64,000 bases of DNA, from NCBI GenBank assembly GCA_963737265.1, contig CAVTRY010000013.1:1-64000 (forward strand), in the 5' to 3' direction. Both the position numbers and the translations under genes were made by a program. The stretch comes from an uncultured delta proteobacterium (GTDB taxonomy: Bacteria; Myxococcota_A; Polyangia; Fen-1088). Positions 36,032-54,984 of the stretch are shown in pieces; the stretch's first letter is position 1, and each line of letters starts with the position of its first letter. The notes under the pieces are model-generated. The model ran no database searches. It saw nothing but the letters and a program-made list of their open reading frames with translations, and was not told the origin of the DNA.

Positions 36032-37933
36032 TCAAGAAGAAACCGTCTCGGGAGTTTTGGCTTCGATGGGCCGCGAGGAGTGTTCCACACAGGGCAAATG
36101 CAGCGTAAATGTACTGCCCCGCCCGGGAGCGCTCTTTACACTGACTTGGCCATTCATCGCTTCCATGATGCTCTTGGCCAGAGGCAGGCCCAGGCCCGTG
36201 CCGTGAATTTGCGCGGCCGTCACGGAAGGGCTGCGGTAAAATGGCTCGAAGATGTGGCGCAATTCCTCGGGAGCGATTCCGATCCCGCGATCCGAGACGC
36301 TGATCTGAATCTCTTTTCCGGTCAAGCCATGTTCGGCGAGCCGCGCCTGAATTCCGATCCATTTCTGTTCGCTGCCATATTTCAGTGCGTTGGTAATTAA
36401 ATTCTGCACGCACTGGGAAAGGGCGGCGAGATCGCCCACGATCCGTGGCAAGCTTGGCTCGATCTGTTGTTCCACGTGGAACCCCGCCGATCGAATGAGT
36501 CCCGCCGTGCCGGACAGCGCGGAATCTAGAATTTCCGGAACCTCCAGCGGGCGCAGGCTGTAGCGCTGCTGGCCTTCGCGAATTGCCGCGAAGAGCAGAA
36601 TTTGCTCGACCATTTCGAACAGCTTGCGGGCCTGCGCGCCGATCACAGAACCGTATTGTTCGAGTTGCGGCTTTCCTTCCACGACGCCGTGGGCGATGTT
36701 TTCGGCCGCGGAGCTGATGACGGTCAGCGGAGTTCGTAATTCGTGGGAAACCGCGGTAACGAAATCCATCTGCAGCTTGGCGAGCCTCTGCGCGCGCGTG
36801 CTCGTGAAGATCAGGATGGCCATGCTGATCACCAGGAGGAAAAGCACCCCGAAGCTGATCGCCAGATCGCGGCGGCGCGAGTCCGCAATGAAGGCCCCGA
36901 GCGCGCCTCCTCGCCGATGCCTTACGATCAGGCGCCAGTCCTGGTCCACGCCTGCATCGTGCAGGAGCGGGAACCACGTGACCGCCACCGAAGCCGCGGG
37001 GCCATTTTCTTGCGAGGGCGTATGGAAAACTTGAATCGGAGATCCATTCTTGTCGCCGCGCAGGCGCACAAAGATGTTCATCGTCCCGTCCGCGTCGGCA
37101 ATTTCCGAAGCGCCGAAGCCCGCGTCGGAAGAATAGAGAGGGCTACGTGTGTTTTTGCCAGTGGTTACGGCAACCTGATAATCGAGTCCGTTCGTGCCGC
37201 TGAAGTATCGCTGCGCGAGGGCTGGGAGAATATTGTTCTGCACATCCGCACGGTCCAGCGCGATCACCACCCAATCGACCGGACCTTGCGTTGCGCCCAG
37301 GCGGCCCGAAGAGGCGGAAGGATTGCGCATCACGGGCTGGACCAGCGCGGGAATGCGCGGTTCGAACTCCCATCCGGCGAGCGGCCCGCCCGTATAAAAG
37401 CGGTTTGCGAATTCTGCGTTTGCGTCAAGCGCCGCAGCGGCATTCGCTCCCCCGGGTGAGCCGAAGGCCGCAGTGGCGCCGGGTTTCGTTGCGGATTGCT
37501 GAAGTTCTTCGCGCAGGCCCGCCAAAATTGCCGGCCAGTCGCTCGGCTCGAATCGCTGGCTAGCGGGGCTTAGACGAAGGACTTGTGCGTCAGGAGATTC
37601 GGCGAGCCGCAAAATATAGAGCCCGGAAACAAGATTGGGATTCGCGGTCGTTTTTTTCCAGTCCGCAAATCTTCGCGCGTACTGATCCCAATCCGCCGGC
37701 GTGCTGGAGTCCGGGTCCACGCGCAGGGCCACGCAAATCTCGGAGAAGACGCGGAAGAAATCGAGATGCCAGTTGATCATGGACATCTGCAAACTGTCGG
37801 CGAGGCGGATGCTGGTGGCTTCGCTGACCTGATTGCTCCAGCGGTATTGCAGGACGCCCAGAACGATCACCACGACTACGGCGAGGATGATGATGACCGT
37901 CGAGAACTCGCGCTCTTTGATGTGCAGTTTCAT
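36032..37933 (-). CDS. Sensor histidine kinase with a large periplasmic domain
   Basis: Two TM helices, SHELRTPL H-box, NLITNALKY, DRGIGI and GTGLGL. Confidence 0.95.
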   Translation of the reverse strand: MKLHIKEREFSTVIIILAVVVVIVLGVLQYRWSNQVSEATSIRLADSLQMSMINWHLDFFRVFSEICVALRVDPDSSTPADWDQYARRFADWKKTTANPNLVSGLYILRLAESPDAQVLRLSPASQRFEPSDWPAILAGLREELQQSATKPGATAAFGSPGGANAAAALDANAEFANRFYTGGPLAGWEFEPRIPALVQPVMRNPSASSGRLGATQGPVDWVVIALDRADVQNNILPALAQRYFSGTNGLDYQVAVTTGKNTRSPLYSSDAGFGASEIADADGTMNIFVRLRGDKNGSPIQVFHTPSQENGPAASVAVTWFPLLHDAGVDQDWRLIVRHRRGGALGAFIADSRRRDLAISFGVLFLLVISMAILIFTSTRAQRLAKLQMDFVTAVSHELRTPLTVISSAAENIAHGVVEGKPQLEQYGSVIGAQARKLFEMVEQILLFAAIREGQQRYSLRPLEVPEILDSALSGTAGLIRSAGFHVEQQIEPSLPRIVGDLAALSQCVQNLITNALKYGSEQKWIGIQARLAEHGLTGKEIQISVSDRGIGIAPEELRHIFEPFYRSPSVTAAQIHGTGLGLPLAKSIMEAMNGQVSVKSAPGRGSTFTLHLPCVEHSSRPIEAKTPETVSS

Positions 37934-37943
37934 ATGCAAATAA

Positions 37944-37978: not shown

Positions 37979-38665
37979 TTACGGTTTGAATTTGTAGCCG
38001 AAGCCTTGCACCGTCAGAATAAATTTCGGCTGCTTCGGGTCGTCTTCCAGTTTTTGGCGCAGGCTGGCGACGTGCACATCCACGGTGCGGGTGTACATGT
38101 CCGCGCTGTAGCCCCAGACTTGTTTCAACAGTTCCTCGCGTGAAAGAGTCGCGCCGCGATGCTCGATAAAATACCGCAGCAATTGAAATTCGCGCGCGGA
38201 AAGATTCACCGGTTTTCCGTCGCGGGTGGCTTCCGTTCCCGTAACGTCCACATGAATCGACCCGAAATCGATCCCGCCAGTATGGGCCGCCGGGCGAATG
38301 GGCGCGCGGCGCATCAGCGCCTCGACCCGCGCCATCAGTTCCAGCATGTTGAAGGGTTTCGTGACGTAATCGTCCGCGCCGATTTTCAGGCCGCTGACCT
38401 TGTCGCTGGTCTGCCCGCGCGCGGTAAGCATGAGGATGGGAGTGATGAGTCCTGCTTCACGAATTCCCTTGCACACGTCGAAGCCGTCCCGTTTGGGGAG
38501 CATGACGTCCAGGATGATCAGGTCAAAGGGAAGCTGCGTGGCCTTTTCGAAACCTTCATCGCCGTTTCCGGCGTAGTCAACGGCGTAGCCCTCGTTCCGC
38601 AGGCGGTCCCCAACCGTCATCTGCAGGGCCTGCTCATCCTCGATAAAAAGCACGTTTCCGCGCAT
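37979..38665 (-). CDS. OmpR/PhoB-family response regulator
   Basis: IEDE, LDVMLP, MLTA, GADDYVTKPF, RTVDVHV and TVQGFGY motifs. Confidence 0.95.
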   Translation of the reverse strand: MRGNVLFIEDEQALQMTVGDRLRNEGYAVDYAGNGDEGFEKATQLPFDLIILDVMLPKRDGFDVCKGIREAGLITPILMLTARGQTSDKVSGLKIGADDYVTKPFNMLELMARVEALMRRAPIRPAAHTGGIDFGSIHVDVTGTEATRDGKPVNLSAREFQLLRYFIEHRGATLSREELLKQVWGYSADMYTRTVDVHVASLRQKLEDDPKQPKFILTVQGFGYKFKP

Positions 38666-38750
38666 CCAAACCCACCGCCATCGCGTCCAAGTTAATTGGG
38701 AGGACGCGTTTCGTGTACTCCAAAAAGGCACGTATATTCCAGTTGAATTC

Positions 38751-38780
38751 TTGACATGTTTTCTTGCTGGATGCTAGCCT
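38751..38780 (+). promoter_or_regulatory. Putative sigma70 promoter of the leader ORF/RraA/RND unit
   Basis: TTGACA-N18-TAGCCT with an extended -10 TG. Confidence 0.6.
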
Positions 38781-38823
38781 CGATAGATTAGCACAGCCTC
38801 CGCAGGGTACGCGGGGGCCACCG

Positions 38824-39169
38824 ATGAATTCCAAAACCCACCCCAAGCCGCCGATACCTTGCCAGCCTTCTCCTCTTATCGGGGATCCTGGTTCTCGGGA
38901 TTGTTCAATGGAGTTTTCTGCCCCTCCTGATTCAGAACGGGCCCGTGGCGAGCGCTGGCGTTCTGGAAATGTCGGCGAGCCATACTTCGAAATTTGCGGC
39001 TCCATTCAAATGTCTTTTCGGAGATGGGCTGAATCCGTGCCTCGTCCAATCGAGGATCACCGTGTGGAGAATGGCGTCCAGGATTGTTCGTCTGCCGGAT
39101 GCCCCGATTTCCGGGCAGGATGATTTTTCCCTCACGCACCGCCCCCTGCGCGCGCCGCCTTCCGCATAA
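38824..39169 (+). CDS. Putative membrane-targeted leader peptide with C-terminal RAPP arrest motif (needs one frameshift within about 20 nt of the ATG)
   Basis: The open frame 38828-39169 reads ...PSRRYLASLLLLSGILVLGIVQWSFLPLL...THRPLRAPPSA*. The ATG at 38824 (after GGGGG) is one base out of frame across AAAA/CCC/CCCC runs. Confidence 0.7.
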
Positions 39170-39373
39170 GAACAAGCAGGGCCCGGTCCCTGCGGTGATT
39201 CCCGATAAAAATTAGGCGCGCGACGAATCGTTTAGGGCAGCGAATCCCATTTTCTTGCGGGTGCGAGTGACGGCTCGAGAGCAAGCGGCCCGTTCAAGAT
39301 ACAGCGATCCGCATAAAATAGAGCCCTGATTGCCCGCTGACATTCTGGAGAGATTTCTAATCTTGGAGATCCG

Positions 39374-40093
39374 ATGACCTCAAATCATATCGAGCCGGCA
39401 GTGCTGGAGGAATTGCGCCGATTGGATTCCTGCAATGTGGCCAACGCCATCGAGAAATTTGGCGTGCGCTTGCGCAATTCGGGATTTACTGATTCCACGG
39501 TTCGCTGCTTGTTTGAAGATTTTCCGCCCCTGGTGGGTTATGCGGCCACGGTCCGCGTCCGAACTTCCGAACCGCCCATGGAAGGGGATAGCTATTACTA
39601 CCGTCTTGACTGGCTCGACCATCTGTCCAATATTCCATCTCCCCGCGTGCTCGTCATGGAAGACCTGGACCCCCGCCCTGGCCTCGGTTCCTTCATCGGC
39701 GACGTCCACGCCAATATTTTGACGGCGCTCGGATTCGTTGGGGTGGTTACAAACGGCGCGGTCCGCAATGTCGAGGCGGCCCGGGCACTCAAATTTCAAA
39801 TGTTCGCCAGAAATCTGTCGGTTTCTCATGCGTTTGCCCACATTTTCGATTTCGGAGGCCCGGTCCAGGTGGGCAACATGCATGTGAAGCCGGGCGACCT
39901 GCTGCACGGGGACCGGCATGGAATCCAGACCGTTCCAGCCGAGATCGCACAAAAGGTTCCGGCTGTAGCAAAAAGAATGAACGGCGAGGAGCAGGAACTC
40001 ATTGAATTCTGCCAATCCGGCGGCTTTACGATGGAAAAACTGCATGCGAATGTGAATGCTCTTAGAATCAAAAGAAAGAATTTCAGGGATTAG
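39374..40093 (+). CDS. RraA-family protein (HMG/CHA aldolase-like)
   Basis: VGYAAT, GVVTNGAVR and VKPGDLLHGDRHG motifs; GGAG RBS. Confidence 0.88.
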   Translation: MTSNHIEPAVLEELRRLDSCNVANAIEKFGVRLRNSGFTDSTVRCLFEDFPPLVGYAATVRVRTSEPPMEGDSYYYRLDWLDHLSNIPSPRVLVMEDLDPRPGLGSFIGDVHANILTALGFVGVVTNGAVRNVEAARALKFQMFARNLSVSHAFAHIFDFGGPVQVGNMHVKPGDLLHGDRHGIQTVPAEIAQKVPAVAKRMNGEEQELIEFCQSGGFTMEKLHANVNALRIKRKNFRD

Positions 40094-40124
40094 GGCGATG
40101 ATGCGGGAAAGTGGAGGTCATCCA

Positions 40125-41346
40125 GTGCGGCGTATTCATGGAATCTTGAGTTTCATAATCTTCGTGATTTTTTGTGCCGCTTCCTTCGGGTGCGGCGAGG
40201 GACGCAAGGCGGCTGCTGACGATGCCTCAAACGCTCCCACGGCTGCCGTCGTGAAAGTGACGCGGGGAAACATCGCCGACAACCTGGAGATCGCCTCGGA
40301 ATTTCAGCCGTTCCAGGAAGTGGACGTGTACGCGAAGGTTTCCGGCTATATTCAAAAGCTCTACGTCGATTACGGAACGCACGTGAAGCAGGGGCAACTC
40401 CTCGCCGTGTTGGAAATCCCGGAACTCCAGCAACAGTTGCAGCAGGATGAGGCCTCCGTCCGCCGGAGCGACCAGGAGCTTACCCGATCTCGCGAAGATC
40501 TGAACCGGGCGCAATCGGCCTACACCGTCGCGAACCTCACCTACACGCGCCTCGCCGACGTACAAAAGTCGCGTCCGGAGCTTATCTCGCAAGAGGAAAT
40601 CGATGTCGCAAAAGGGAAGAACATGGAAGCGGATGCGGATGTGTCCGCGCAGAAGGCGGCGCTCTCCGCGGCGCAGGAAGCGTTAACCGCGGCAAAGGCC
40701 GCGCTCGGCAAGGATCAGGCCATGTTCGACTACGCGCGAATGACGGCGCCGTTCGACGGCGTGATCACGCAGATATACGCGTACACGGGAGCGCTGCTTC
40801 CGGCCGGAACTTCCTCGAACAAGGGCGATTCCGCGCTTTGCCGCTTGTCGCAAAACAGTCTCTTGCGGCTCGTGATTCCGGTTCCCGAAAGAGCTGTGCC
40901 CGATATTCGCACGGGGGAAGCAGTAGTTGTGATTGTTTCCGGCTTAAACCGGACATTCGAGGGCAAAATCATCCGATTCCTCGGACCAGATTGACACGGC
41001 GACTCGCACGATGCACACCGAAGTCGATGTGCCCAATCCCCGCTTTGAATTGGTTCCGGGAATGTACGCCTCCGTGAAAATTCCTCTTCATTCGGTCGCG
41101 AATACCTTGATGGTTCCTGTCCAGGCGGTACTGGCGACGGGAGAAGGGAAGGGAACAGTCCTGGTGGTGGATAAAAGCAATCGAATCGAAAAACGCGCCG
41201 TCACGCTGGGAATGCAATCCTCCGCGAACGACGAAATCGTTTCCGGGCTCCAGGAAAATGAAACCGTCATTTTTGGGTCCCAGGGACAGTATCAAGCGGG
41301 GCAAATCGTTTCACCAAAACTCATCGAGCCTTCCATGACTGAATAG
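40125..41346 (+). CDS. RND efflux periplasmic adaptor (MFP), lipoprotein-like; apparent frameshift near 40985
   Basis: AKVSGYI, VKQGQLLA and TAPFDGVI; TRTMHTEVDV and PGMYA continue in ORF 41011..41346; GGAGG before GTG. Confidence 0.88.
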
Positions 41347-41358
41347 GAGTTTTTATCT

Positions 41359-44300
41359 ATGCCCTCCTTTGCCATTCGACATCCGTATTTGTTGATCGTT
41401 GTTTGTTTGTTCGTTTGCGTGCTCGGTCTGACCAGCGTCACGCGCATGCCCGTGGATATGTTTCCACCGATCAATCTTCCGGTGGTACTGGTCGCGACGT
41501 TTTATAGCGGAATGCCCCCGCAGCAGATCGAAGCCGACATTACCGACACGTTCGAGCGTTTTTTCACACTGGCCAGCGGAATCGACCACATGGAATCGCG
41601 GTCGATGACCGGCGTCAGCCTCATTAAGATCTACTTTCAACCGGGAACCGATGCGAATGCCGACGTGACCCAGGTCTCGAACCTCGCCATGGCGGACCTC
41701 CGAAGGCTGCCTCAGGGAACACTCCCCCCCGTCGTCATGAAGGTGGATGCCTCCAGTTTGCCGGTTTGCCTCTTGACCGTTTCGGGAGAGGGGTTGAACG
41801 AAACCCAGCTCCACGACTACCTGCAATACCAGATCCGAAACCAGGTCGCCGGCGTCCCTGGTGCGACGGTTCCACCCCCGTACGGCGGAAAATATCGGCA
41901 GATCATGGTCTATGTGGACCCGGTCAAACTGCAAGCCCACGAATTGAGTCCCATGGATGTGGTCCGCGCGACCAACTCTTCGAACTTGATTCTGCCTGCC
42001 GGGGACGTACGGATCGGGCCAATGGATTACAACATTTACACCAACGCCCAGGTCTCGGATGCAAAGGACCTTAACGGAGTCCCGATCAAAACCGAGGGCC
42101 AGAAATCCGTGTTTCTCTCCGACGTAGGCAGCGCTGTCGACGGCTCGGCCACGCAATACAACATTGTCCGTGTGGACGGCCAGAAATCGGTGTACGTCGC
42201 GGTGCAGAAGCAAGGCGGCGACACGAACACCATTGCCGTTGTGAACGGGATCAAGAACGCCATACAATTTCTGCGCGATATTCCGTCCCAGCTCAAGGCG
42301 CACGTCGTTTTCGACCAGTCTCTCTTCGTCAAGCAAGCCATTTCGACTGTACTTCGCGAGGGCAGCATCGGTCTTCTACTGACCGCAATCATGGTGCTGA
42401 TTTTTCTCGGGAGCGTTCGGGCCACGCTGGCCGTGCTTCTTTCGATTCCGCTTTCCGTCATGATCGTATTTTTCGTGCTCTATACCGGGAATCGCTCGAT
42501 CGACAGCATGGTTTTGAGCGGACTGGCCCTGGCGTTTTCCCGCTTGATCGACAACTCCGTGATCGTCCTCGAAAATATTTTTCGCCACATCGAGCACGGC
42601 GAGGACCCTCCGACTGCGGCGGAGAAGGGCGCCAATGAAGTGGTTCTCCCCGTGCTCGCGATCACGTTGATCGCGGTAGTAGTGTTCTTTCCGGTGACGT
42701 TTTTGTTCGGAGTCAGCAAGGACTTGTTCACCGCTCTCGCCCTCGCCGTTGTGATCGCTCTGTTTGCTTCTTACTTCGTTGCCGTCACGGTTGTGCCTCT
42801 TTACAGCGCGCGCTACCTCAAGCCGATGGAGGCGCATGGCGAACAGGAAGGGCGCTCCGCACTGGCCGGATTTCACACCTGGTTCAACGCCAAATTCGAG
42901 ATGCTTGCTGAACTTTTACGAACGATGGGTGCGAAGCGCCCTCGACCACCCCGCGAGAGTTCTCTATGGATTCGGCGCCTTGTTTCTCCTGAGCTTCCTT
43001 CTATTTCCCTTCGTGGGGCTTTCGTTTTTCCCCGAACCGATGCCGGGCAATTTGTGATCAACGTGAAGGCCCCGACGGGCACTCGAATCGAGCTGACGGA
43101 AAAATACGTGGAAAAGGTGGAAGACATCGTGCGGCAAATCGTTCCCGCCTCCGAGCTGAATACCATTGTTTCCAACATTGGCCTCACGCCTGACCTGTCC
43201 TCGCTGTTCACGCCGAATTCCGGAATGCACACGGCTTTCGTTCAAGTGGGACTGAAGGAGGACCATCAAGTGAATAGTTACGTCTACATGGGCCGGGTCC
43301 GCAATCGCGTAGCGAGGGAACTTCCGGAGTTGCGGACGTTCTTCCAGTCCGGCGGATTGGTCGATGCGGTCTTGAACCAGGGCGCCCCTGCGCCAATCGA
43401 CGTTCAAGTCAGCGGAATGGATTTGGAGGGAGATGACCGCGTTGCCGAGGAGCTCGCTCGCAAATTCCGTGCGGTACCGGGAGTTTCCGACGTGTACGTT
43501 CCGCAGGACATGGACTATCCGGCGTTGCAAGTGAACGTGGATCGCGAGCGCGCCAGCGAATTGGGACTGGACTCGAAGGAAGTGATCGACAACGTGATTA
43601 CGTCGCTGACCTCGGACGCGATGATTGCGCCGAGCTACTGGGTCGATCCCAAAAGCGGTAATAACTATTTCGTAACTGTCCAATATCCCGAAAATCAGGT
43701 GAAGTCCATCGAGGATCTGAAGGCCATGCCGTTGCACGCTCCCAATCTGAAACTTCCGACGTATTTGAATCAAGTCGCCGACGTGCGCCTGATCCGTTCT
43801 CCCACCGAAGTAGACCACTACCAACTGCAAAGAAGCATTGACGTGTATGTCTCCCCCTCCGGCGAGGATCTCGGGAAAGTCGCGAAAGCTGTTACAAAGA
43901 TTATCGCGGACACGCAACTTCCTCCGAACCTTCGCATTAACCTGCGGGGATTAGTGGTCACCATGCAGTCTTCGTTCCGGAGCTTCGGGTTTGGGCTTCT
44001 GCTCGCCGTGCTGCTGGCCTATTTGGTTTTGGTCGCGCAGTTCACATCCTTTGCCGATCCCTTTTTGATTGTTCTGGCGGTTCCGACCGGCATCATCGGA
44101 GTCCTGTTCACTCTCGCTCTGACCGGAACCACGCTGAACATCCAATCGCTGATGGGGGTGGTGATGCTGCAGGGAATGGTGGTCTCGAACAGTATCCTCA
44201 TCGTGGATTTCGCCAATGTGCTCCGCAGCGAGGGACATTCCGTCCTGGAAGCGATCGCGGACGCTTGCCGAATCCGTTTGCGTCCGATCCTGATGACTTC

Positions 44301-44505
44301 CTTGGCAACCATTGTCGGACTCCTGCCAATGGCCCTTAAACTGGAAACCGGCAGCGAAGCGTATGCACCGCTGGCGCTGGTCATTATCGGAGGATTGATC
44401 TCGTCCATCCTCCTGACGATCTTCGTCGTGCCGGCGGCCTACCTGTTGATCTACCGGCGTCGCGAAGCATCGGCGCGCGCCCCGGTCTTAGGGGAGGCGC
44501 ATTAA
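41359..44505 (+). CDS. RND efflux permease (AcrB/CzcA superfamily); compensating frameshifts about 42900-43030
   Basis: 1048 aa with PVDMFPPI, LIDNSVIVLENI and RLRPILMTS; the TM7 region is found in the alternative frame (LLNFYERWV...LSFFP). Confidence 0.93.
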   Translation: MPSFAIRHPYLLIVVCLFVCVLGLTSVTRMPVDMFPPINLPVVLVATFYSGMPPQQIEADITDTFERFFTLASGIDHMESRSMTGVSLIKIYFQPGTDANADVTQVSNLAMADLRRLPQGTLPPVVMKVDASSLPVCLLTVSGEGLNETQLHDYLQYQIRNQVAGVPGATVPPPYGGKYRQIMVYVDPVKLQAHELSPMDVVRATNSSNLILPAGDVRIGPMDYNIYTNAQVSDAKDLNGVPIKTEGQKSVFLSDVGSAVDGSATQYNIVRVDGQKSVYVAVQKQGGDTNTIAVVNGIKNAIQFLRDIPSQLKAHVVFDQSLFVKQAISTVLREGSIGLLLTAIMVLIFLGSVRATLAVLLSIPLSVMIVFFVLYTGNRSIDSMVLSGLALAFSRLIDNSVIVLENIFRHIEHGEDPPTAAEKGANEVVLPVLAITLIAVVVFFPVTFLFGVSKDLFTALALAVVIALFASYFVAVTVVPLYSARYLKPMEAHGEQEGRSALAGFHTWFNAKFEMLAELLRTMGAKRPRPPRESSLWIRRLVSPELPSISLRGAFVFPRTDAGQFVINVKAPTGTRIELTEKYVEKVEDIVRQIVPASELNTIVSNIGLTPDLSSLFTPNSGMHTAFVQVGLKEDHQVNSYVYMGRVRNRVARELPELRTFFQSGGLVDAVLNQGAPAPIDVQVSGMDLEGDDRVAEELARKFRAVPGVSDVYVPQDMDYPALQVNVDRERASELGLDSKEVIDNVITSLTSDAMIAPSYWVDPKSGNNYFVTVQYPENQVKSIEDLKAMPLHAPNLKLPTYLNQVADVRLIRSPTEVDHYQLQRSIDVYVSPSGEDLGKVAKAVTKIIADTQLPPNLRINLRGLVVTMQSSFRSFGFGLLLAVLLAYLVLVAQFTSFADPFLIVLAVPTGIIGVLFTLALTGTTLNIQSLMGVVMLQGMVVSNSILIVDFANVLRSEGHSVLEAIADACRIRLRPILMTSLATIVGLLPMALKLETGSEAYAPLALVIIGGLISSILLTIFVVPAAYLLIYRRREASARAPVLGEAH

Positions 44506-45851
44506 TGCGTAGTTCTTGTGGCTCGTTGCTTTTTCTTATTTTCACCGGCGTCCTTTTCGCTGCCGGCCCATCTGGAGCGCAAACTCCGCCGCAGAATTCC
44601 GCTCTAGGTCCATCGCAAACCCCCAATCAAAATGCGCAGCGCCTGACGATGCAGGACGCGGAAAAGATTGCCATCCAAAACCATCCGCAGATTCAAGCGG
44701 CGACGGAATTAGCTTCGGCCGCCGCGGCTCAGGTGAAGGAGATTCAATCCGCCTATTATCCGCAATCGAGCGGGGCTTTCACGGGCGCCAAGGCGGAATC
44801 GAACAGCCGCATCGCCGCGGGGTTCTTGAACAGCCCGTCCTTGTTCGACAAGTTTGCCGAAGGGATTTCCGTTAGCCAGCTCGTGACCGACTTCGGCCGG
44901 ACGCACGAGCTCTCGAAGAGTTCGCATTTTCACGCGCAGGCGCAGCAGGAAAATGTTGTTACCACGCGCGCCGATGTGCTTTTGCGCGTCAACCTGTCCT
45001 ACTTCGCCGTGATGAAGGCGCAATCAGTCCTTCAAGTCGCTGAGGAGACGGTAAAGGCGCGCCAGTTGGTCGTCGATCAAGTGAGCGCCCTCGCGAAGAG
45101 CAGCCTCAAGTCCGGCCTGGACGTGAGTTTTGCGAATGTGGACCTGGCTCGAGCGCAGCTCTTGCTGGTGCAGGCGCAAAACGACTTGCAATCCTCCTAT
45201 GCGCAACTTTCCGACGCGCTCGGTTATTCGGACCAGCGGACGTTTCAGCTGGTCGACGAGCCTTCGCCGGGTTCTCCTCCGCCGGATGTGGCGCCGCTGA
45301 TTGCCGAAGCGTTGCAGAACCGGCCCGAAATCATAAGTCAGGGGTTTGACCTGCGGTCGGCGCAAAGCTACGCCACAGCGGAACGCGATCTCTGGTTTCC
45401 CACGATCTCGGCCGCCGGAGTAACCGGCCTTGTCCCCTACCGGCAAGACACATTGCCCAGCCGCTACGCCGCGGCGGGATTCAACGTCAATGTCCCGATC
45501 TTTAACGGACGACTTTTTAACGCCGAGCACACGGAGGCGACGGCGCGTGCACGCGCGCAGGAGCAATTTCTTCGCGATCTTCAGAACCGCGTCGCCCAGG
45601 ACGTCCGCACGTCCTGGCTCAATGTCATCTCCGCCTACCAGCGCCTATCCCTCACCCAACAATTGCTCGATCAGACCACCCAGGCTTTCGATCTGGCCAA
45701 GGGGCGGTACCAATTGGGCTTGAGCTCGATCATCGAACTCAGCCAGGCGCAATTGAATTTGACCGAGGCGCAAGTCGAGCAAGTCAGCGCGCAGTACGAT
45801 TACGAAAGCCAGACAGCCAATTTGAATTACCAGTTGGGACGCGTGAAGTGA
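44505..45851 (+). CDS. TolC-family outer membrane efflux protein
   Basis: Signal peptide, AIQNHP, RPEI, VPIFNG and RYQLGLSSIIELSQAQ; TAATG coupling with the permease. Confidence 0.92.
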   Translation: MRSSCGSLLFLIFTGVLFAAGPSGAQTPPQNSALGPSQTPNQNAQRLTMQDAEKIAIQNHPQIQAATELASAAAAQVKEIQSAYYPQSSGAFTGAKAESNSRIAAGFLNSPSLFDKFAEGISVSQLVTDFGRTHELSKSSHFHAQAQQENVVTTRADVLLRVNLSYFAVMKAQSVLQVAEETVKARQLVVDQVSALAKSSLKSGLDVSFANVDLARAQLLLVQAQNDLQSSYAQLSDALGYSDQRTFQLVDEPSPGSPPPDVAPLIAEALQNRPEIISQGFDLRSAQSYATAERDLWFPTISAAGVTGLVPYRQDTLPSRYAAAGFNVNVPIFNGRLFNAEHTEATARARAQEQFLRDLQNRVAQDVRTSWLNVISAYQRLSLTQQLLDQTTQAFDLAKGRYQLGLSSIIELSQAQLNLTEAQVEQVSAQYDYESQTANLNYQLGRVK

Positions 45852-50480: not shown

Positions 50481-51716
50481 CACGGTTTCCTCTGTGCGGG
50501 AGCCTGCGGTTCGGCGACACGGACTGGCGTGCCTTCGGCGAGAGAGTCGGAGGGATTCAACACCACCCATTCGTCGCCTTTGAGCCCGGCGACAATTTCA
50601 ATTTCCGTTCCGAAGTCCCGGCCCGGCGTAACCGGGATCAGGGAAATAGTCTTCCCGTCTTTTACAACCGCTACTTGCAGGCCCGCGGATTTGAAAATCG
50701 TCGTATTCACGGGAAGCGTAAACGTGTTCACAGGGGAGGGCATTTTGAGATGGACTTCCACGTAGCCTCCCGGTTTGAGCAGGTGCGCGGAATTTTCCAC
50801 ATCCACTTCGGTGAGCAAGGTTCGCGACGTGTTGTCAATCGCTCCGGAGCTCCTGGACGACGGTTCCCTGGAATTTACGGCCGGGGAATTCGGTGAGAAC
50901 CAGGTCCGCGTGCAGCCCCGGCCTGATCTCCGGAGAATTGAGCTGCGGGACGTTGACGTAGACGCGCAAAGGGTTCAAGGCCGCGATGTGAAACAGTTCA
51001 CGCGCCGTTCCGCCGCCGCTGCCGGAATCGATCAGCTGGCCAATGTCGGTATTGCGCGCCGTGATTACGCCGTCAAAGGGAGCGTACACTTTCTCGAACG
51101 ATTGCATGTCCTGCAGCCGCTTCACATTGGCCTGAGCTGATTCGACGGCGCTCCTGCGAGCATCGTAATTTCCCGTGGCGTTGTCGACGTCCTGTTGCGC
51201 GACCGAATCCGTTTTCAGCAATTCCTTGTAGCGGGTGGCCGTGATTTCCGCAAGGCTCATGTTTGCCTGGGCTGTTGTGAGATCGGCCCGCGCCTGCTGC
51301 AATTGCTGGTCTACTTCCGGCGAATCGATTTCGGCAAGGAGTTGTCCGGCTTTCACATTCGCGCCGATATCGGCGTACCACTTTTTCAGATAACCGTTGG
51401 TGCGCGCGAAAATGGGCGCATCGGTATAGGGCTGCATATCGCCGGGGATGACGATTTCCTCTTGAGGCGCCCCTGCCTTGGGATGAACGACGGAAACGGT
51501 CGGGATCGCGAGGTCGCGCGTCTCCAGGGACAGCTGCGCATTGGCCTTGCGGCGGCTCGAGATTCCCCAAATGACGACCATGGCGACGACAACCACGATG
51601 AGCAAGAGCATTACCGTGCGGGTCACCTTGCTGCCGGGAGAAGGTGAACCGCCGTACTGCTCATGCTCGCCGGCCGGCGCGTCCGCGCGGCCCCGCTGAT
51701 TGGTAACAACCTCCAT
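50480..51716 (-). CDS. RND efflux periplasmic adaptor (MFP); apparent frameshift near 50845
   Basis: ARTNGYL, DIGANVKAGQLLA and APFDGVITAR; SRTLLTEVDV and PGGY continue in ORF 50480..50818; GGAGG RBS. Confidence 0.9.
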
Positions 51717-51783
51717 CTGATCCTCCGAAATTCGGGTGCGGGCTGTCGCCGCGGCGACGAGCGCGCATGAAAACTGGTCCAGA

Positions 51784-54984
<3,201 letters not shown>

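Follow-up and report, generated by a model that had tools for sequence, protein, structure and literature searches.

A hidden 114-residue membrane protein family ending in RAPP as a putative ribosome arrest leader of RND efflux operons

What is encoded between a divergently transcribed two-component operon and an RND (resistance-nodulation-division) efflux operon in an uncultured delta proteobacterium whose contig CAVTRY010000013.1 (assembly GCA_963737265.1) supplied the 64,000-nucleotide (nt) stretch analyzed here, hereafter the window? An initial annotation, made from the sequence alone, had proposed that the region conceals an arrest-peptide leader ending in Arg-Ala-Pro-Pro (RAPP), placed in front of an RraA-RND operon and missed by the listing of open reading frames (ORFs). 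We find that the leader is a real, conserved gene. The first gene of the efflux operon encodes a 114-residue, predicted single-pass membrane protein that is probably a RAPP-class ribosome arrest peptide and would couple a translational stall to pump expression, as judged from sequence features and from analogy with characterized leaders. The stalling, its release cue and its coupling to downstream expression are what we infer from that analogy.

The body of the leader is a stop-to-stop frame on the forward strand at 38828-39169, comprising 113 codons and a stop, and running from TGA 38825-38827 to TAA 39167-39169. It translates as IPKPTPSRRY-LASLLLLSGILVLGIVQWSFLPLLI-...KC-x8-C...HRPLRAPPSA, with a hydrophobic stretch of 25 residues followed by about 70 more, which is the succession of RRY, hydrophobic helix, C-x8-C and HRPLRAPPSA that the initial annotation had read. 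Its account of why the gene had been overlooked is also correct: ATG 38824 sits one base away in the neighboring frame, the RAPP frame is closed by the TGA just 5' of 38828, and the earliest ATG, GTG or TTG of that frame is GTG 38945, for which reason the ORF list shows only 74 amino acids. Among all stop-to-stop frames in the six frames of the 64-kb window, this is the sole frame of at least 40 amino acids with R[AGS]PP inside its final 12 residues. A chance ORF is ruled out, since homologs are abundant and full length and no other frame of this kind exists in the window. The elements of the leader, all on the forward strand, are listed here; residue numbers used below are those of the window's 113-residue translation.

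38814 to 38826, forward: ribosome-binding site and family start, GGGGG here (family consensus GGAGG), a 5-nt spacer, and ATG 38824-38826
38828 to 39169, forward: body of the leader ORF, which together with the ATG-AAT codons makes the 114-amino-acid family protein
38829 to 38830, forward: one extra base (TT where relatives have T), throwing the ATG out of frame; a probable assembly indel
38855 to 38932, forward: transmembrane helix YLASLLLLSGILVLGIVQWSFLPLLI, predicted from sequence, conservation and AlphaFold2
38978 to 39028, forward: S/G-H-x-S-K-F-A-A-P-F-K-C-L-F-G-D-G motif, a candidate sensor element, from conservation
39125 to 39160, forward: putative arrest sequence F-S-L-T-H-R-P-L-R-A-P-P, with RAPP at 39149-39160
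39167 to 39169, forward: stop codon, two codons past RAPP, a tail length conserved in the family

Homologs of the leader are numerous. A word-indexed protein search matched 301 proteins at E <= 1, and among the matches listed (the best 120 of the 301) nearly all are 114 amino acids long, with 69-90% identity and a query coverage of 95-100%. The family nevertheless appears narrow, because an exhaustive profile search over 1.84 billion cluster representatives gave just 24 representatives of 50%-identity clusters at E <= 0.001. Named sources are Acidobacteriota/Terriglobia metagenome-assembled genomes (MAGs), soil metagenomes and one bin labeled Verrucomicrobiia. Of the 97 loci that we compared, species genomes supplied 17 and metagenome contigs 80. 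The leader ORF is present in 92 of them, ending in RAPP in 91 and in RGPP in one; as for the five others, the copy in L022 is frameshifted, L038 is a distant RraA-like locus that lacks the leader, and three copies run off the end of their contig. Among the loci from species genomes, which come from the GTDB collection, 15 of 17 carry the leader family, to which the frameshifted L022 copy can be added. At the protein level, 133 of 143 family members end in RxPP followed by one to five residues (127 RAPP, 6 RSPP), the remaining 10 being truncated, frameshifted or fused. The initial annotation had predicted that a transmembrane segment plus RxPP would recur upstream of orthologous operons, and these 92 loci and 133 database proteins agree with it. 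Neither Pfam (E <= 0.01) nor NCBIfam has a family that matches the leader.

Across 70 distinct DNA versions of the C-terminal core, the Arg is present in 70/70 over four codons and the Ala in 69/70, with one Gly; both prolines are present in 70/70, the first over four codons and the second over two. The Arg and both Pro are invariant over synonymous codons, and selection has therefore acted on the peptide and not on the RNA. The protein is small (modal length 114 amino acids), and the motif stands within a few residues of its end: two residues follow RxPP in 124 of 133 proteins and 87 of 92 loci. The Ala changes to Ser (6/143 proteins) or Gly (1/92 loci) only, and the Arg is never altered. Published mutagenesis of the RAPP core found the Arg irreplaceable, Gly fully permissive and Ser partly permissive (section 7 of PMC12992588), and the natural Ser and Gly variation of the family matches the arrest-permissive substitutions reported there.

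Three blocks of the protein are conserved, namely the transmembrane helix, the motif at residues 51-67 and the final 14 residues, F-[SF]-L-[ST]-[HY]-[RH]-P-L-R-A-P-P-S-A. Within the helix, LGIVQWSFLPxLI is invariant or nearly so across the family, and in the 51-67 motif K55, F56, A58, P59, K61 and G67 are invariant in the family protein alignment. Residues 39-46 and 72-100 vary freely in sequence and are constant in length: in 172 of 181 distinct sequences the distance from K55(FAA) to R108(APP) is 53 residues, and in the same 172 the distance from QWS to R108 is 81. The window protein has C62-x8-C71, with 45 residues between C62 and R108. The C-x8-C that the initial annotation had noted is not constant, the first Cys being replaced by G, F, Y, A or H in several members. 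AlphaFold2, run with a 34-row alignment, gave a confident helix at residues 9-36 with a predicted local distance difference test score (pLDDT) of about 90, and the rest at a pLDDT of about 50 with no secondary structure. An N-terminal localization signal is present, as a 25-residue hydrophobic stretch after K/R residues that coincides with the AlphaFold2 helix. The basic residues N-terminal of the helix, by the positive-inside rule, predict a topology with the N-terminus inside and the C-terminus outside. The 51-67 motif is a candidate sensor element by its conservation; it lies 43-59 residues from the peptidyl-transferase center, roughly at the tunnel exit, and the end of the transmembrane helix lies 74 residues from the arrest point.

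Is the gene intact in this genome? The window reads ATG-AAT-T-CC..., with one surplus base whose removal restores MNPKR..., and in 90 of 90 loci with the 5' end present an in-frame ATG (MNPKR.PSRRY...) is preceded by GGAGG. We checked the break on Logan contigs from four soil-metagenome runs. The sole near-identical contig across it (run X1, 94 nt, two other differences) is without one base at 38829, and the reading ATGAAT-CCAAAG is also given by two further contigs of greater divergence. Exact matches to the window are found in contigs over 38886-39106 and 39173-39290. The in-frame start on which the initial annotation had made its leader depend is therefore found, in the 90 homologous loci and in the near-identical short-read contig, and the break in the leader frame is most likely an assembly indel. 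Two facts tell against this restoration: the window's own letters put the gene out of frame, and the contig lacking the base differs from the window at 2 of 94 nt, with no zero-difference contig over 38817-38847 among the Logan contigs of the four runs.

It is also conceivable, and in our judgment quite improbable, that the leader is truly frameshifted in this genome, as a pseudogene in a possibly decaying operon with a broken adaptor gene. The absence of a zero-difference contig fits such a pseudogene, as do the window's own reading of ATGAATTCC and the splitting of the gene for the periplasmic adaptor, or membrane fusion protein (MFP), at 40056-41346. The pattern of breaks elsewhere fits an indel-prone assembly instead. 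Four other frameshifts occur in genes of the window (40975-40984, 50850-50856, 53948-53968 and 53448-53460). The MFP gene of the leader operon changes frame at 40979/40981 by tblastn, and 12 of the 13 related loci have an unbroken first MFP gene, with 412-454 codons stop to stop (367 in L035). A second, unrelated MFP-RND cluster (50495-54969, reverse strand) has three breaks, one in the MFP gene and two in the RND gene. In the sister MAG locus L022 (2200-3010) the leader is broken at a T-run in the D-D-F-S codons, with the C-terminal ...LTHRPLRAPPSAS in another frame, an assembly fault of the window's type as judged by the sequence. A pseudogene is further opposed by the three contigs without the base and by the rest of the leader frame, which is intact and 85-90% identical to intact homologs. 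Two of five break sites, the leader's included, lie within 5 nt of GANTC (GATTC) against a 7% background, which is too few sites to conclude from; the leader break site would read GAATC without the extra T, and basecalling that errs systematically at a methylated motif may be the source of the breaks.

A scarcely credible third possibility is that the window has no sequence error here and the cell makes the protein nonetheless, from the rare start ATT 38828 or by a programmed shift after ATG-AAT. ATT 38828 does open the RAPP frame right after the TGA, 9 nt 3' of the GGGGG ribosome-binding site. No homolog is so arranged, the 90 loci all having an in-frame ATG, and the sequence gives no sign of a shift site; an assembly indel is the simpler explanation. 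The consequence for annotation is that a single base, a probable assembly indel, hid a conserved and putatively regulatory gene, and no ORF caller would report the gene in the window.

The distribution of the locus raises a question about the bin itself. The leader is absent from the matches in 60 sampled genomes of relatives, where the best E was 0.005 and lay inside long unrelated frames, and a sample of 400 additional genomes of the class did not yield it either, these being samples by which absence is not proven. The RraA-like gene was likewise not found at E <= 1e-20 in the same 60 relatives. The leader locus nonetheless occurs in at least 16 other species genomes, and the estimated contamination of the bin is 7.6%. 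The locus may be patchily distributed, or the contig (C13) may come from a lineage other than that of the bin label. Separately, in two cluster representatives (P0132 and P0135) the first ~80 residues of the leader are joined to a TolC-like C-terminus; these could be chimeric contigs, or real deletions that removed RraA, MFP, RND and most of the TolC gene.

The genes and sites around the leader are as follows.

36032 to 37939, reverse: sensor histidine kinase (Pfam HisKA and HATPase_c), the distal gene of the divergent two-component operon, with homologous pieces upstream in related loci
37979 to 38656, reverse: OmpR-type response regulator (Pfam Response_reg and Trans_reg_C), divergent from the leader
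38745 to 38806, forward: conserved upstream block with TTGACA 38751-38756, an 18-nt spacer, TGcTAGCCT 38772-38780 and a conserved 5' leader
39374 to 40093, forward: RraA-like gene of the aldolase family (Pfam PF03737, E = 2.9e-20), an optional second gene
40056 to 41346, forward: RND periplasmic adaptor (MFP), frameshift-split near 40980, with NCBIfam TIGR01730 on both pieces
41359 to 44505, forward: RND permease, its best models multidrug (HAE1-like; NCBIfam NF033617, E = 2.2e-176, below the curated cut-off)
44505 to 45851, forward: TolC-family outer-membrane factor (NCBIfam TIGR01844, E = 7.8e-44, below the curated cut-off)

The leader stands directly upstream of, and co-directional with, the genes that follow it in 81 plus 9 of the 92 loci. 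In 81 the next gene is RraA-like, at a distance of 112-295 nt with a mode near 200 nt (in the window its ATG 39374 is 204 nt 3' of the leader stop), and in nine the MFP-RND genes follow the leader directly; the other two are too short to tell. Nine loci are without the RraA-like gene, and the constant partner of the leader is therefore the efflux system and not RraA. The RraA-RND pairing of the initial annotation holds for the RND operon, which is constant, and fails for the RraA-like gene, which is not obligatory and looks like an optional insertion between leader and pump. In the RraA-less loci (L060, L083, L088, L089, L101, L104, L106, L110 and L111) the MFP starts ~140-200 nt past the leader. 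Where the RraA-like gene is present in the window, the MFP ORF overlaps its end by 38 nt (40056-40093) if ATG 40056 is used, and MFP homologs align from window position 40059 or 40086; the overlap suggests translational coupling.

Upstream, a homolog of the divergent regulator is found in 78 of the 81 loci with enough upstream sequence. The initial annotation had placed a promoter in the gap, and a consensus promoter scan called none in the upstream block, although the TTGACA-containing block itself is conserved, with a column identity of 80-99% in a MAFFT alignment of 71 distinct loci. The block is likely a promoter or a regulator-binding region, with its -35 and -10 elements assigned from sequence. 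The hexamer TTCTTG occurs there twice, 13 nt apart (window 38748-38766), overlapping TTGACA, with the second copy TTCTCG in the family consensus; the pair is a possible binding site of the divergent OmpR-type regulator.

Three further features lie in the RNA between the leader and the next gene.

39176 to 39193, forward: 6-bp hairpin GCAGGG-N6-CCCTGC, beginning 21 nt past the first base of the inferred P-site codon
39194 to 39215, forward: conserved flank after the hairpin, GGTGATTCCCGaTaAAAAtTAG, about 20 nt, GGTGATTCCCGTTGAAAA
39352 to 39368, forward: U-rich GATTTCTA segment and the GGAG Shine-Dalgarno sequence of the RraA-like gene (39365-39368), conserved in 63 sequences

The hairpin, which the initial annotation had placed correctly together with the 180 nt that separate it from the RraA-like gene, is conserved in its pairing. 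Across 75 distinct sequences 90.8% of cells are paired, against 41-57% in slid controls, and 11 cells have compensatory changes on both sides, a number reached by 0 of 500 shuffles. Its distance from the first base of the P-site codon is 21 nt in 58 of the 75 sequences, with a range of 18-25. The front edge of a ribosome stalled at RAP|P reaches to about +16, and the hairpin would thus begin a few nt beyond it. In the flank, the majority base is found in 67-92% of the 75 sequences at alignment columns 56-64 and in 65-89% at columns 54, 55 and 65, and the middle of the spacer is not conserved. The consensus of a hairpin-stabilized RNA polymerase pause has G at -10 and an 11-nt hairpin distance. 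The hairpin with its GGUGAUUCCC|G flank resembles such a pause, and we hypothesize that the flank is the RNA-DNA hybrid part of it. In the pause consensus scaffold of PMC6336406 the RNA ends in a 3' C, and the base that follows is G. Over its final 80 nt the ORF is richer in C than in G (GC skew -0.29 to -0.35). No Rfam family matched the stretch 38600-39450 at E <= 1, and among the sequencing runs listed as containing the locus none is an RNA run. An intrinsic terminator on the forward strand after the stop was rejected: the hairpin has no U-tract, and the terminator-like call of the scan (39193-39176) is on the minus strand.

How might such a leader act? The ribosome would stall while its P-site tRNA carries ...R-A-P (CCG 39155-39157) and Pro-tRNA occupies the A site (CCT 39158-39160), an assignment made because of the analogy with the ApdA, ApdP and CruR toeprints (sections 7 and 14 of PMC12992588). 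The stalled ribosome would cover the C-rich final ~30 nt of the ORF, its front edge a few nt short of the conserved hairpin. During the stall, the downstream genes (RraA-like where present, MFP, RND and TolC) would stay expressed. By the route that we prefer, which is CruR-like, the ribosome would protect from Rho both the RNA and an RNA polymerase paused past the hairpin; a SecM-like opening of the downstream ribosome-binding site is the other possibility. Our preference for the CruR-like route is weak, and the folding models lend little support to SecM-like unmasking of the Shine-Dalgarno sequence.

The initial annotation had named membrane insertion as a possible cue, and this part of its proposal is weakened. 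At the arrest, the transmembrane helix would already be outside the ribosome and in the membrane. Its end is 74 residues before the arrest point and should be inserted already, and simple insertion-force sensing is consequently not an obvious release cue. The GHxSKFAAPFK motif, 47-58 residues from the peptidyl-transferase center at that moment, is therefore the likely site at which insertion, translocation, folding or binding would pull the chain and release the stall. The 45-residue gap between C62 and R108 equals the CXXC-RAPP gap of CruR, which is a hint in favor of this motif. Pump expression would then report the state of the membrane or periplasm, on top of the transcriptional control exerted by the divergent two-component system. 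A more specific version, which we offer tentatively and consider somewhat doubtful as a whole, has the periplasm-facing GHxSKFAAPFK motif, at a fixed distance of about 50 residues from the peptidyl-transferase center, release the stall on a membrane or periplasmic cue (for example a substrate or subunit of the pump, or the insertion machinery), with pump synthesis set through the hairpin-paused polymerase and Rho, and with a 45-residue rule shared with CruR.

Several observations weigh against the arrest-leader interpretation or against parts of it. The helix between the U-rich segment and the Shine-Dalgarno sequence (GATTTTC/GGAGATC) pairs in 77.5%, which is not above shuffles, and shows no covariation. 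In ensembles over 65 related, non-independent sequences the Shine-Dalgarno sequence is mostly paired, and occlusion of the arrest footprint lifts its mean unpaired probability only from 0.19 to 0.22; single-sequence folds are mixed on its unmasking. RNAalifold proposes a long-range helix of the RAPP codons with a segment ~45 nt before the Shine-Dalgarno sequence, without compensatory change, and the window's own fold does not reproduce it. Pairing of the post-hairpin GATTCCC with the Shine-Dalgarno flank shows no covariation by eye in loci with a changed flank. The Rho and pause idea draws on the C-rich stretch and on the pause consensus. The transmembrane helix and the 51-67 motif are conserved beyond what targeting needs, and the mature protein could have a job of its own. 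Finally, most RAPP-like proteins of E. coli and B. subtilis are reported not to stall in vitro, and the sequence N-terminal of the core matters (PMC10987492).

These last two points also belong to a rival explanation, in which the 114-residue product is mainly a functional small membrane protein, an RND accessory or a modulator of the sensor kinase, and RAPPSA is a functional tail or slows its own synthesis. The near-invariance of LGIVQWSFLPxLI and GHxSKFAAPFK exceeds what a generic anchor would need, the kinase/regulator pair adjoins the leader in 78 of 81 loci, and the helix-shuffle and ensemble tests found no structure unmasking the Shine-Dalgarno sequence. Yet RAPP-like motifs are reported to be avoided in bacterial proteomes except at the C-termini of small exported or membrane proteins upstream of genes (PMC12992588), the natural substitutions to Ser and Gly are exactly the arrest-permissive ones, and the fixed two-residue tail, the variable spacer of constant length and the lack of a predicted fold suit a nascent-chain device. 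We regard a mainly accessory role as unlikely, and the two roles are not mutually exclusive. The arrest-leader interpretation, for its part, is consistent with every RAPP sequence feature tested.

RND pumps are usually described as being under the control of repressors and two-component systems. If the arrest-leader interpretation is true, a self-stalling, membrane-inserted leader would be a co-translational layer of control for such a pump, and the RAPP leader class would extend to efflux systems and to Acidobacteriota, a dominant and poorly studied soil phylum. With its short protein of three conserved blocks, a downstream gene that is optional and a hairpin that is conserved, the family would make a clean test case and could reveal how the release of arrest depends on where a sensor motif stands with respect to the exit tunnel.

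RAPP leaders upstream of diverse, non-Sec genes were described in 2025 (PMC12992588), and the novelty seen by the initial annotation is reduced to that extent, since these leaders are now a published class; the RND efflux pairing itself does not appear in the main text of that paper. The downstream groups named there are Sec genes, TonB-dependent receptors, YcnI, PCu(A)C, PepSY, DsbA/thioredoxin and ECF (extracytoplasmic function) sigma factors. Its main text mentions neither efflux, RND, RraA, HlyD, membrane fusion nor transporter, while the gene groups of its Fig. 4 and appendix may include efflux or RraA-like genes. A 2024 survey was limited to upstream ORFs of sec/yidC genes, and its text mentions neither efflux, RND nor any name in Acidobacteri- (PMC10987492); the same source cites CutF, which the initial annotation had counted among the RAPP leaders, as a poly-proline leader instead. 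A literature search for an arrest-peptide leader of an RND operon gave, by title and start of abstract among the matches listed, none that is comparable except the drug-dependent MexXY. In MexXY of Pseudomonas aeruginosa, a short upstream ORF and ribosome stalling take part in the regulation of an RND pump, as would be the case here. The stalling there reportedly comes from ribosome-targeting drugs acting on a cytoplasmic leader and works indirectly through an anti-repressor, with no membrane anchor and no RAPP.

SecM of E. coli shares with the present leader an N-terminal export signal, an arrest at a C-terminal R-A-G-P that lies only a few codons from the stop, and a next gene under its control, here a putative trait (PMC10987492). 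SecM melts a stem-loop that hides the Shine-Dalgarno sequence of secA, whereas the hairpin here lies beyond the expected front edge of the ribosome, with the predicted accessibility of the Shine-Dalgarno sequence nearly unchanged. ApdA and ApdP, encoded upstream of secDF, and the RQH family have the C-terminal RAPP with its irreplaceable Arg, the N-terminal localization signal and the upstream co-directional position (PMC12992588, PMC7897499, PMC10951233). They regulate and monitor Sec components, whereas RraA-like, MFP, RND and TolC genes lie downstream here, and the likeness drawn is one of core and layout. No localization-machinery gene of the kind that follows Sec/YidC monitoring substrates is found among these downstream genes (RraA-like, RND adaptor, RND permease and TolC-like). 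The arrest of RAPP peptides is reported to be refractory to elongation factor P (EF-P), and 7 of 7 Streptomyces lividans proteins with a C-terminal RAPP or RGPP and a co-directional downstream gene stalled in vitro (PMC12992588). Published proof that a membrane-anchored RAPP architecture stalls comes from four S. lividans membrane proteins (SLIV_33595, SLIV_33605, SLIV_27375 and SLIV_18480), whose genes precede ones for ECF sigma factors, thioredoxin-domain proteins and metal-related functions (PMC12992588); like the leader, they have conserved regions with no assigned role. They have four transmembrane segments, belong to another phylum, precede other downstream genes and show no sign of homology with the leader here.

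The closest parallel is CruR, the copper-responsive DUF2946 protein encoded upstream of bfrG in Bordetella pertussis, which is likewise the small exported or membrane first gene product of an envelope-transport operon. Its stall at RAP|P was confirmed by toeprint (PMC12992588). A ribosome arrested at its RAPP, three residues from the stop, keeps Rho from terminating transcription within a 162-nt spacer, in which RNA polymerase is proposed to pause (PMC9426467). Both leaders carry RAPP two to three residues before the stop, their spacers measure 162 nt in CruR and ~200 nt here, and both have a fixed distance to an upstream motif, with 45 intervening residues from CXXC to RAPP in CruR and 45 between C62 and R108 here (PMC9426467). 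Both are also predicted to be poorly structured. The nearest named cluster in a language-model (Atlas feature) search was 'DUF2946 domain-containing', at 0.93, which serves as a lead only; no Pfam match to DUF2946 was found among 34 leader members at E <= 10, and the leader has no CXXC. By these sequence comparisons it is outside DUF2946 as well as outside the Sec/YidC monitoring substrates. The two leaders differ further in that the one here has GHxSKFAAPFK-C-x8-C with a dispensable first Cys and a transmembrane anchor in place of a cleavable signal peptide, and precedes an RND efflux system where CruR precedes a TonB-dependent importer. Copper sensing and Rho dependence have been demonstrated for CruR. 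If the shared 45-residue spacing is meaningful, it would point to a general design rule for ligand-gated RAPP leaders. Judged by its sequence and setting, the leader is a new family and a new pairing, with RND efflux and in Acidobacteriota, inside the known class of RAPP leaders.

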